Shown piece after piece: positions 61,255-64,000 of a stretch of 64,000 bases of DNA (positions are counted from its first letter, which is position 1; each line of letters opens with the position of its first letter). Position numbers and translations under genes: made by a program. Source of the DNA: an uncultured bacterium (lineage in GTDB: Bacteria > Cyanobacteriota > Vampirovibrionia > Gastranaerophilales > Gastranaerophilaceae); assembly GCA_902765215.1 (NCBI GenBank), contig CACWZA010000011.1, positions 10,897-74,896 on the forward strand, given 5' to 3'. The notes below the pieces were generated by a model. It ran no database searches and was not told where the DNA came from. It saw nothing but the letters and a program-made list of their open reading frames with translations.

Positions 61255-64000
61255 TTAAAATCTAAAATCTACAATTTCTACATTGTAATCTTTGAATACA
61301 GAAGGTTTCTTAACCGTGTTGTACTTAGTTTGGTTAATATACACAGAACGGTTAACTTTTTTGGTTACCTTTTGAATTGAATCGGTTTTGTTCACCCTGA
61401 CAGGCGGAACTTCCTTAACCTGTTGAACGACAGGTGCAACAGGGCTTGTCACTTTTTCCTGAACCTGTTTAACAGGCTGGACAGTCTGTTGTTGTACGCT
61501 TTGAACAGGTTTTTTAACATCAGGGATGCGCTCTACCGTTGGTTTCTGAACGGCAGAATCAAGCTCCTGCTCAACGATTTGCTTATTCACCTGATAAGGA
61601 TTAGGCAGCTGACCGTTGACAGGCTGTCCGTCCTGACCGACAAAAACAGGATCAAGGTACTGTTTCACAGGTTTTGTATCAGTAGTCTGTTTATAAATCA
61701 GTTTTACATCCTGAGATTTATCCAGAGTCGGTTTGTTAACAGCTTTTGGCGTTGCCTTCGCAGGTGCCTGAGTAGTTGAAGCCGGTTTTTGAGGAGTTAC
61801 TTTCTTCTGAACAGGTTTCTGTTGAACCGGTTTTTGAACGACAGGTTTTTCTGTCACAGGAGTTTGTTTTACTGTCTGCTTGGTTTCTTTAACCGTATTC
61901 TGCTGAACAACAGGCTTATTATTCTCTTTTTTCACCTTTTGCTGTTTAGTTTCAGTCTTAACTGTCTTAACCACAACAGGTACGGTTTTTACAATATCGG
62001 TTTCCTGTTCAACCTCAATAATACCCGAACCTTCTTCCGGCTGCTGGTGAATAACCTTCATAGAATCAATTCTGTCCTGATCCTTGAAGTCCATCAATGA
62101 TTCGTCTTTTTTGCGTTTCATACCGTTAATATTAGGCATAATAACACCGTCAGGATGAACATCCGTAACAACCTTTGCAGATACATCCGTATTATATCTG
62201 TAGAACAGTTTGTCTTTTGCTTTTCTGAGAATATTTCTAAAGCTGAATTTAGGTCTTTCCGCTTTTGCTTTCTTTTGTTTAACTTTTTCTTTTGCCATTC
62301 TCTTAGGTTTTTCTTTACCTATTGACTCAATGACAATATCAGGATCTTTTTTAGACTTAAATAATGTTTTCTTAGGTTTTGGATCATCGTGTAATACGGC
62401 AGTTCTTTCTGTCAGCTTACCCATCATACATCTGAAACCGAACAACAGCGCAGCACCGCGTCTGCCGCCGCTTCTTACAGTTGCCTGAGCAAAACCTGAA
62501 TACTTATCAGACCAGCGCTTTTGGATACCCAAACCATATTCAACATAAGGATTTAATGATATTGAAGGTAGTTTAACGCTATCAGCATAGAACCCTGTCT
62601 TATCACAGAAGGTACAGATAACGCTCACGACACCATAAGGCTGCCAGCCGTTCGCTAAATTACCGACAATTTTTATCCCCGGAACAAAATGCATTGAATG
62701 GAGCGGATCAATATCAACCCTTGCACCGTTTGAAGCCTTATAATCATCCATCCATACAAAGGTATAACCCATTGTCATTTGAGGCTGAATTATAACTTTT
62801 CCGTTAGCTATCTCAAAATTATAACCAAATCTGTCGGAAAAACCTGCCATTATAAGGTTTAACAAATCAGAGCCGTAAGGAGTATCACTGTTGTTTATTT
62901 CCCAACCGACACCCGCTGTGAGTGTGTTATAGAAATTTCCTTTATATATATTAATAGTTGCCCCCAATGTTGCACCCTGTTGGGTAGCACTAATATCTTT
63001 AAAGTGGTAACTTGTACCGTTATAGCCCATATATCCGCCATATACCATACGGAAACCATGCCCGATATCAATCAGGTCACTGTCACCGCCTGCGAGCATA
63101 CCATAATTAATAGCTGTTACTTTTGGCCCATGGTGGAACGGAATACTTTCAAATGAAGTATACGGTCTTACCCAAATACTTCTGACTTCCTCAGGCACAT
63201 TAATATATGTAGGATTATAATATGGATCATAAATATTCTGCGATTGATTTTCAGCAGTCGCAATTTTTTTGTACATATTATCTCTTACTCGTTTTGGAAG
63301 CATCATATATGTGAAAGAATGGTACATTGCGTACTCATAATTTGTTAACATATTCATATGTGCTATGTGCTGAGCGACATTACCCGTATATAAAGAAGGG
63401 TTGTAATCGTCGAAGTCGCCGCCGCCTCCGCCGCCGCCTCGGCCAAAGATAAAGTAACCGTCAGATTTATCGTATCTTACTACATATTTATAAACCCTTG
63501 AATATACAGTCTTAACTGATGTAGTTACATTTTTCTTCAACGGGTCATCAGCAAAGAATACTCTCGTTACCTTGCGTTTCGTATCCCTGATGAGGTTCAT
63601 TTTGCTGACATTTATTGTACCGTTTATGTTTTCATAATTATTTGCATTTACTCTGTCCATGACTTTATTTTCAAGATCAACATCAACTCTGACATTTGTC
63701 TTGCCACTCGTTGTCATGGTATTGAAATTAGCATTACCGATTTCATTATTAATCATATTAAGTGTACCGCCCTGTGCATTGAAATTATCACCGGTCATCA
63801 AATCATCATGTGCCATATTGAGGGTTGTTTCACTTAATGTAACTGTTGCATCCGTTATTGTATTGTTTAAATTTACTTCTCCGTTTTGGGTACCCGTAAT
63901 GTTTACCCCATAACCAAATTCTGCACCTGAAATTTTATCGTTAAGGTTAATCTCGCCGTTATCTTCCGCACTCAAAGTAACGGTTGCACCTGCATTCCCT
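61255..64000 (-). CDS. Type Va autotransporter (5' end off-window) with a ~390-aa K/P/V/Q-rich extension after the beta-barrel
   Basis: The frame stays open upstream of the track's TTG 'start' through base 64000 (..GNAGATVT-LSAEDNGE). One passenger unit (LNMINNEIGNANFNTMTTSGKTNVRVDVDLENKVMDR ... YKYVVRYDKSDGYFIF) is followed by a poly-Gly hinge, a linker helix, and an autotransporter beta-domain pattern from SIWVRPYTSFE to GAALLFGFRC (aa ~266-516 of the listed ORF). A long low-complexity tail then ends ...DYNVEIVDFRF. Confidence 0.85.
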   Translation of the reverse strand, partial: GNAGATVTLSAEDNGEINLNDKISGAEFGYGVNITGTQNGEVNLNNTITDATVTLSETTLNMAHDDLMTGDNFNAQGGTLNMINNEIGNANFNTMTTSGKTNVRVDVDLENKVMDRVNANNYENINGTINVSKMNLIRDTKRKVTRVFFADDPLKKNVTTSVKTVYSRVYKYVVRYDKSDGYFIFGRGGGGGGGDFDDYNPSLYTGNVAQHIAHMNMLTNYEYAMYHSFTYMMLPKRVRDNMYKKIATAENQSQNIYDPYYNPTYINVPEEVRSIWVRPYTSFESIPFHHGPKVTAINYGMLAGGDSDLIDIGHGFRMVYGGYMGYNGTSYHFKDISATQQGATLGATINIYKGNFYNTLTAGVGWEINNSDTPYGSDLLNLIMAGFSDRFGYNFEIANGKVIIQPQMTMGYTFVWMDDYKASNGARVDIDPLHSMHFVPGIKIVGNLANGWQPYGVVSVICTFCDKTGFYADSVKLPSISLNPYVEYGLGIQKRWSDKYSGFAQATVRSGGRRGAALLFGFRCMMGKLTERTAVLHDDPKPKKTLFKSKKDPDIVIESIGKEKPKRMAKEKVKQKKAKAERPKFSFRNILRKAKDKLFYRYNTDVSAKVVTDVHPDGVIMPNINGMKRKKDESLMDFKDQDRIDSMKVIHQQPEEGSGIIEVEQETDIVKTVPVVVKTVKTETKQQKVKKENNKPVVQQNTVKETKQTVKQTPVTEKPVVQKPVQQKPVQKKVTPQKPASTTQAPAKATPKAVNKPTLDKSQDVKLIYKQTTDTKPVKQYLDPVFVGQDGQPVNGQLPNPYQVNKQIVEQELDSAVQKPTVERIPDVKKPVQSVQQQTVQPVKQVQEKVTSPVAPVVQQVKEVPPVRVNKTDSIQKVTKKVNRSVYINQTKYNTVKKPSVFKDYNVEIVDFRF

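Follow-up and report, generated by a model that had tools for sequence, protein, structure and literature searches.

A type Va autotransporter of gut Gastranaerophilales with a long, conserved tail after the beta-barrel, predicted to be periplasmic

In classical (type Va) autotransporters, the beta-barrel typically forms the extreme C-terminus of the polypeptide and ends in an aromatic residue. The C-terminus of a 12-stranded autotransporter barrel lies on the periplasmic side, as in structures of the NalP and EspP type. Here we describe an autotransporter gene whose product departs from this arrangement, with about 386-390 residues appended beyond the barrel. The gene is located on the reverse strand at the end of a 64,000-nucleotide stretch of contig CACWZA010000011.1 (assembly GCA_902765215.1, positions 10,897 to 74,896), called the window below, from an uncultured bacterium of the Gastranaerophilaceae. 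A prediction made earlier from the letters of the window (the original prediction) had proposed two explanations for the extra residues, a periplasmic spacer or tether and a last barrel strand displaced by a giant insertion.

Periplasmic domains at the C-terminus, beyond the barrel, are known from trimeric (type Vc) autotransporters of Terrabacteria, cyanobacteria among them (PMC7549365; bioRxiv 10.64898/2026.01.22.700529). Among trimeric autotransporters, 92-99.8% have them in Negativicutes, Synergistia and Synechococcus and 62% in Fusobacteriia, and hardly any do in Proteobacteria (bioRxiv 10.64898/2026.01.22.700529). Deletion of the periplasmic domain leads to degradation, and the proposed roles are stability, anchoring and compensation for missing BAM lipoproteins (bioRxiv 10.64898/2026.01.22.700529). 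Inverse autotransporters carry periplasmic LysM or helix domains at the N-terminus (bioRxiv 10.64898/2026.01.22.700529). Tethers of the OmpM type are present in Melainabacteria. We found no description in the literature of C-terminal periplasmic tails on classical type Va autotransporters, and no study of autotransporters from Melainabacteria or Gastranaerophilales. The original prediction knew of no such architecture as described; as far as the literature searched goes, this holds for the classical type Va; it does not hold for autotransporters at large, since type Vc proteins of Terrabacteria have such domains. What is new here, on the structural models, is the long, disordered and motif-bearing tail, predicted to be periplasmic, of a type Va autotransporter in a lineage where extensions after the barrel are common.

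The autotransporter and its barrel

The open reading frame (ORF) at 61255-63975 on the reverse strand was listed at 906 amino acids (aa), and the frame is still open at the window edge. Two metagenome contigs independent of each other, L001 and L002, carry the complete gene, whose product has 1543 aa; the window ORF forms the C-terminal 906 of these. The copy in L001 is located at 5169-9800, and all 915 of the 915 codons shared with the window are identical. A signal peptide was predicted at the N-terminus of this full-length copy (hydrophobic stretch ...MLLLSGLIVCACSSFSYA/EEV), and the passenger contained five matches to Chlam_PMP repeats (PF02415, E 1.1e-10). Judged by its sequence, the protein is an autotransporter with an N-terminal signal peptide and a secreted passenger. 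In the full-length gene (L001 5169-5345), about 38 extra residues separate the called start from the hydrophobic core of the signal peptide; the signal region may be extended, or the start may have been called wrongly.

The homologues used for comparison were the 43 closest clusters (P0001-P0043), which are 45-95% identical to the window protein over the matched region. Taxonomy was surveyed in the named homologues and, out of 571 related loci in genomes of GTDB species, in the 80 best. Nearly all of these relatives were metagenome-assembled genomes of Candidatus Gastranaerophilales, Melainabacteria or 'Cyanobacteria bacterium UBA', and a few carried other bin labels. They came from the guts of human, ruminant, rabbit and other hosts, and several paralogues per genome were common. 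The gene product is a Pmp-like classical (type Va) autotransporter adhesin of gut Gastranaerophilales (Melainabacteria/Vampirovibrionia).

The barrel is located at 62428..63210 on the reverse strand, and its last strand is RGAALLFGFRCM (aa 517 is also counted as the first residue of the tail). The peptide SIWVRPYTSFE, where the original prediction had placed the beginning of the barrel pattern, starts at ORF aa 266, and RRGAALLFGFRC, where it had placed the end, comprises aa 505-516. These limits were correct. The NCBIfam model TIGR01414 (autotrans_barl) matched aa 82-505 (model positions 3-417 of 432, E 7.8e-16). When the barrel piece was scanned alone, and only then, PF03797 matched aa 268-498, at 48.5 bits (cut-off 26). 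The match was lost when the full protein was scanned, a Pfam scan of the whole ORF returned no family, and YadA_anchor had no match in the Pfam scans of the protein. The precomputed Pfam annotation of the whole protein lists Chlam_PMP alone; the barrel piece that was scanned corresponds to window 62425-63468 on the reverse strand. Since whole-protein scans miss PF03797, members of this family are likely to be recorded too seldom as autotransporters in databases.

AlphaFold2 was run on ORF aa 170-906 with 48 aligned sequences (model m44dcc2cfdcf3). The model contained 12 strands across aa 266-517 with a predicted local distance difference test score (pLDDT) of about 90-97. In a Foldseek search of the PDB the top matches were AIDA-I, BrkA (target template-modelling score 0.85, root-mean-square deviation 3.0 Å), EstA, EspP, Hbp and NalP. 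Domain models, predicted structure and structural matches thus agree with the barrel call of the original prediction, and on the modelled structure the barrel is a complete, monomeric 12-strand barrel of type Va (PF03797/TIGR01414 family). Its last strand ends in Cys in the window protein and in Tyr in many homologues, and 390 residues then follow.

Upstream of the barrel, the junction with the passenger and a candidate pore-linker (ORF aa 178-255) occupy 63211..63444, where a run of nine glycines is followed by the helices of the AlphaFold2 model (aa 193-216, 218-223 and 228-240; pLDDT 86-95), immediately ahead of strand 1. The glycine run, GRGGGGGGGDF, is located at window 63417-63444 on the reverse strand. 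The C-terminal part of the passenger is at 63445..63999 on the same strand, as judged from the open frame to the window edge, the full gene in L001 and PF02415. In its signal peptide, Chlam_PMP passenger, predicted helical linker and 12-strand barrel, which superposes on BrkA with the score given above, the protein resembles the type Va autotransporters of the Pmp type (Chlamydia Pmps; BrkA, AIDA-I, EspP, NalP). It differs from them in running roughly 390 residues past the barrel and in a sequence too divergent for PF03797 to be recognised in whole-protein scans.

Anatomy and conservation of the tail

The tail comprises ORF aa 517-906 (390 aa) and maps exactly to 62427-61258 on the reverse strand, as the original prediction had it. 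All 43 homologues continue past the barrel, with tails of 193-446 aa (median 264 aa). The homologue P0001, from another sample, is 95% identical overall and 98-100% identical in the tail. Lys (17%), Val (15%), Gln (10%) and Pro (8%) are prominent in the composition of the window tail, the net charge of which is +33. Every one of the 43 tails is positively charged, in a range of +5 to +55.

The possibility that the tail is an artefact of sequencing or assembly, or a frameshift fusion of two genes near position 62428, deserves virtually no credence. Nothing was found in its favour. An identical gene is present in two independent assemblies, which come from different samples. The frame runs into a conserved C-terminal module across 43 homologues, which come from many samples and from genomes of several GTDB species, and an artefact is excluded for this reason. 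A stop near 62428 that a frameshift had masked, which the original prediction had allowed for, is likewise excluded by the conservation across samples. The tail is real, is conserved in the orthologous group and consists of three parts. Its description as a low-complexity region was correct for the basic composition and incorrect for uniformity, since conserved proximal and distal modules flank a variable spacer.

The proximal conserved module (aa 517-640; 62056..62427, reverse strand) was delimited in the alignments of 43 homologues and has a net charge of +15. It begins with an M.GK turn, which is also present in paralogues without a tail, followed by KK..FK.[RK]K.P.I.I, a stretch rich in Lys and, as an amphipathic helix, FRNILRKAKDKL. 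The near-invariant motif YNTDVSAKVVTDVHPDGVI...NGM (consensus YNTDVSAKVVTDV.PDGVI....GM) comes next, and then DF.D.D. D81, V82, D93, G94, V95 and G102 of the module are invariant, and the motif is kept in 42 of the 43 homologues. Identity to the homologues is 33-75% in the proximal module and about 30-75% for the proximal and distal modules together, on par with the passenger.

The spacer (aa 641-855; 61411..62055, reverse strand) was recognised from its composition (Val 19%, Gln 16%, Lys 15%, Pro 11%, Thr 10%; aromatic residues 1.9%). It is mostly unalignable, with identity lower where it can be aligned in part, and its pLDDT was 33-46. Its length among the homologues ranges from tens to more than 300 residues, and it is frequently repetitive internally. 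No DNA tandem repeat was found in the spacer of the window copy.

The distal conserved module (aa 856-906; 61258..61410, reverse strand) ends in ..NKTDSIQKVTKKVNRSVYINQTKYNTVKKPSVFKDYNVEIVDFRF-COOH, and 42 of the 43 homologues match its consensus, KTD.I....NK..lYlNQT.Y..P.K...F.DY..E[IV][IV].F.F-COOH in the alignment of 43 tails. The terminal motif ...KDYNVEIVDFRF that had been pointed out in the original prediction is present and is conserved beyond chance (42/43). A hydrophobic residue, any residue and a C-terminal Phe close the protein in 42 of the 43 homologues. The terminal strand has hydrophobic residues at -2 and -4, a conserved Glu at -6 and Asp or Glu at -10. The comparison of homologues thus revealed conserved end modules and a variable middle.

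The second explanation in the original prediction was that the true last strand had been displaced to the extreme C-terminus. Related forms of this explanation are an extra hairpin at the extreme C-terminus and a tail that forms a giant loop in a larger barrel. The terminal residues partly alternate and end in Phe, as such a strand might. Twelve confident strands, including the canonical last one, nevertheless precede the tail, and the structure matches 12-strand type Va barrels. Fifteen positions of TIGR01414 remain beyond aa 505, and they are filled by aa 506-520. Tail-less paralogues end in ...GLRW.xGK(E), which is aligned to FGFRCMMGK, precisely at the start of the tail. The conserved Glu at -6 and the acidic residue at -10 make the terminal strand incompatible with a lipid-facing position. 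In the second AlphaFold2 run we used the homologue P0036, the short tail of which (193 aa) would allow the proximal and distal modules to meet. The terminal strand lay outside the barrel in both models, so the strand VEIVDFRF does not complete the barrel, as had been conceivable. The displaced strand is rejected because the terminal strand stays off the barrel and because the tail-less paralogues end where the tail begins; we consider it and its related forms extremely improbable. The tail is appended after a 12th strand that is in place and is not an insertion. The terminal hydrophobic-x-Phe-COOH resembles the BAM beta-signal and the Y-x-F end of outer-membrane proteins, but it is not on the last barrel strand, has acidic residues at -6 and -10 and is located roughly 330-390 residues from the barrel in the window copy. 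In a BAM beta-signal, the last membrane strand of the barrel closes with an aromatic residue and has alternating hydrophobic residues at -2, -4, -6 and -8.

Both AlphaFold2 runs gave a confident barrel and a tail generally with pLDDT below 50; the distal module reached 56-63. Over the YNTDVSAKVV...DGVI segment, only a weak helix and a weak hairpin were seen. In the P0036 model the proximal and distal modules neither folded together nor docked on the barrel. On these models, intrinsic disorder with conserved linear motifs is the most fitting description of the tail.

To see how far extensions of this kind reach, 78 complete type Va paralogues of Gastranaerophilales were counted by the number of residues after the barrel. 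There were 0-11 residues in 32 paralogues, 17-44 in 22, 50-128 in 15 and 190 or more in nine. At least 17 residues follow the barrel in 46 of the 78 (59%), in several sequence classes. One class of 17-30 aa ends in ...PELPKt.i.LnNiK, and another of 50-117 aa ends in ...KQLTPEQRTALGAKPQNTTRT...GvLKQL. Other tails of 128-202 aa, including those of L081 and L082, are rich in Lys, Pro, Val and Thr. A K.[VI]IKQL-like motif recurs in several classes. The fact that several classes have conserved ends of their own indicates that extensions after the barrel are a habit of the lineage. Type Va paralogues with such other tails were observed among loci L017-L085 (for example L019, L017, L055, L083, L081 and L082).

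Possible roles of the tail and its candidate partners

Searches of the tail against Pfam, NCBIfam and the PDB, as a single sequence and as a profile, returned no meaningful relative. The best matches of the tail and of the neighbouring gene product were low-complexity noise (TATA-box protein, E 0.36; Plexin_RBD, E 0.014; Csf2, E 0.014). We propose that the tail may be an extension into the periplasm, polycationic, disordered and equipped with docking motifs, which would stabilise and anchor a long adhesin in the manner of the type Vc periplasmic domains; we see about equal chances that this is right and that it is wrong. The tail would remain in the periplasm as a stabilising and anchoring extension, as in the trimeric autotransporters of Terrabacteria. 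The spacer would act as a flexible cationic leash that threads through the anionic cell wall or binds it. The two motifs, proximal and distal, would be short docking sites that fold upon binding, probably by beta-strand addition, to a partner in the wall or in the inner-membrane zone. The product of the conserved downstream gene is one candidate for this partner. This would hold the adhesin, together with the outer-membrane patch around it, to the underlying envelope and would shield the protein from degradation.

The likeness to the type Vc domains consists in an extension exceeding 10 residues after the barrel, in the occurrence in Terrabacteria including a cyanobacterial lineage, and in the proposed roles in stability and anchoring. 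The differences are also considerable. The window protein is a monomeric type Va protein with a 12-strand barrel, not a YadA-anchor trimer with four strands per monomer. The known type Vc examples have SLH or coiled-coil domains (Vta of Veillonella), OmpA (Streptobacillus) or long coiled-coils (Synechococcus), whereas the tail of this family is disordered and polycationic, bears short motifs, lacks coiled-coil, SLH and OmpA domains and is much longer (193-446 aa). The first explanation in the original prediction, a periplasmic spacer or tether, is consistent with all results, namely the complete barrel, the disorder, the charge and the variable spacer between conserved ends, and falls short of proof. 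Its term 'TonB-like' applies loosely. In common with TonB and TolA linkers, the tail is basic, contains proline, is extended or disordered and is long enough to span the periplasm. It differs in being attached to an outer-membrane barrel and not to an inner-membrane anchor, in its proline content of 8-11% without (EP)n or (KP)n runs, and in having no TonB_C domain.

Several observations weigh against the anchoring extension proposed above. No TonB_C, SLH, OmpA or LysM domain was found in the tail with Pfam, even at E values up to 10, and no coiled coil was found. The tail profile, built without the P0006 tail row, gave five matches among 1.84 billion representative proteins. All five belonged to its own family or were pieces of such members, so homology offers no function to transfer. 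The periplasmic location of the tail and its retention in the mature protein are themselves predicted. The downstream gene is missing beside some copies of the family, and a terminator-like hairpin together with a promoter-like site suggests that this gene is transcribed separately (see below). In Veillonella the outer membrane is tethered chiefly through OmpM and not through autotransporter domains (bioRxiv 10.64898/2026.01.22.700529).

An alternative role is that of a handle for biogenesis or quality control. The terminal hydrophobic-x-Phe-COOH and the strand-like motifs would mimic the C-terminus of an unassembled outer-membrane protein and recruit PDZ domains of Deg/HtrA or Ctp proteases, or the POTRA domains of BamA, which would aid the secretion of a long passenger; anchoring would be secondary or absent. 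Hydrophobic-x-Phe C-termini are the class bound by the PDZ domains of DegS and DegP and by BAM. The end is of this kind in all but one of the 43 tails, the tail is disordered without a fold of its own, and the host bacteria are reported to lack BAM lipoproteins. Veillonella trimeric autotransporters are degraded once their periplasmic domains are deleted, and the preprint authors propose that these domains offset missing BAM components in Terrabacteria (bioRxiv 10.64898/2026.01.22.700529). Paralogues of the same lineage without a tail or with other tails end, however, in ...VGKE, ...LKQL or ...NNIK, with no terminal aromatic residue, so a terminal Phe is not a general requirement for assembly in this lineage. 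A spacer of 60-320 aa would also be unnecessary merely for presenting a C-terminus, and the PDZ or POTRA partner is putative, by analogy. We regard the handle as unlikely, although it deserves more weight than the two proposals that follow.

It is also conceivable, with a rather small probability, that the classical autotransporters of Gastranaerophilales are envelope-spanning connectors, the terminal strand of which would plug by beta-addition into a receptor anchored in the wall or the inner membrane. Candidate receptors would be the neighbouring repeat protein, a membrane protein with a TonB_C domain and no spacer, or a PDZ protein. If this were so, the outer membrane would be tethered or force-coupled to the inner envelope by a system unrelated to OmpM/SLH, Lpp, Pal and OmpA, with the geometry of TonB reversed.

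A more specific proposal is a force transducer working in reverse, with the leash on the outer-membrane protein and a TonB-box-like terminal strand that reaches a TonB_C- or TolA-like domain in the inner membrane and couples the adhesin to the energised inner membrane. TonB_C domains bind their partners by beta-strand addition, and the length of the tail suffices to cross the periplasm. At 38371-39645 the window also has a gene for a polytopic membrane protein that carries a TonB_C domain at its C-terminus and lacks a Pro-rich spacer. This co-occurrence in one window is circumstantial, though. No ExbB or ExbD gene is present beside 38371-39645, no co-variation or synteny with the autotransporter was seen, and no likeness of the distal motif to TonB boxes is established. 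The reversed transducer is thus a most improbable reading. The protein at 38371-39645 (forward strand) has 424 aa, and its TonB_C domain was detected with PF03544/PF13103 (E about 5e-8).

As for the candidate partner of the anchoring extension, the downstream gene at 57461..61054 on the reverse strand encodes a secreted protein of 1197 aa with a signal peptide, a conserved N-domain of about 170 aa, repeats rich in Lys, Val, Glu, Ala and Pro, and a conserved C-terminus. The repeats are of the EKPVKVAKxEEPKPVKVKE type, the net charge is +81, and tandem repeats with periods of 57, 114 and 228 nucleotides (nt) were found in the DNA. No Pfam or NCBIfam family matched the protein. In phmmer searches of the fetched loci, the gene immediately downstream of the long-tail autotransporter was a homologue in L003/L004/L008 (826 aa), L007, L012 and L013. 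The neighbour is thus syntenic in the closest clades, in several Gastranaerophilales species. A homologue search with its N-domain found one fragment, within the limit of the word index used. No homologue was present beside the P0036-type and L010 long-tail copies, so the neighbour cannot be a partner that every member of the family requires. In L005 (1491-7875), P0036, of the short-tail subgroup, adjoins a two-partner secretion (TPS) pair, namely TpsB (POTRA_2/ShlB) and a TPS-domain protein of 1483 aa, which shows that the repeat protein does not accompany the long-tail family everywhere.

The original prediction had noted that the composition of the tail mirrors that of the neighbour. The likeness is one of composition only, and homology was rejected (best BLASTP E 0.026). 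A consensus scan placed a terminator-like hairpin with an 11-bp stem and a T run at 61180..61204 (reverse strand), 50 nt past the autotransporter stop, and a promoter-like site after it at 61108-61079. These suggest separate transcription of the two genes, and an operon is doubtful. A precedent for a co-located periplasmic partner is the AtaA/TpgA pair (PMC12523085). As in AtaA-TpgA and SadA-SadB, an adhesin gene is adjacent to a conserved gene for a secreted non-barrel protein. Unlike in those pairs, the neighbour is a huge Lys/Val/Glu/Ala/Pro repeat protein without an OmpA-like or BamE-like domain and is probably transcribed separately. Its product may be considered a candidate partner of the tail, and no more.

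Other features of the window and meaning for the lineage

Between smpB and lptF/G, a tandem duplication of about 155-160 nt was observed at 55595-55910 (forward strand) in a 600-nt intergenic region. It consists of 71-nt and 36-nt blocks that are 94-97% identical, and no Rfam family and no tmRNA or tRNA was called in it. A 792-aa protein with RTX calcium-binding nonapeptide repeats (PF00353, E 1.6e-34) is encoded at 42207-44585 (forward strand). A tyrosine integrase gene at 50984-52141 (forward strand) is located beside a tRNA-Glu gene at 52551-52626 (reverse strand), and an AAA_14/DUF4143 ATPase gene at 47114-48424 has unannotated ORFs near it. It is possible that window 47114-52626 is an integrated element.

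The analysis exposes an annotation gap, in that proteins of this kind are labelled as Pmp-repeat or hypothetical proteins and their barrel is overlooked by whole-protein Pfam scans. It also extends the pattern of periplasmic domains known from type Vc autotransporters of Terrabacteria, on the predicted topology, to monomeric type Va autotransporters in the non-photosynthetic sister lineage of cyanobacteria. The long-tail family appears to use a different solution, a disordered polycationic leash with two conserved docking motifs in place of a folded domain. The YNTDVSAKVV...DGVI motif and the hydrophobic-x-Phe end can be mutated and would allow stability, anchoring and help to BAM to be tested in lineages without BAM lipoproteins.

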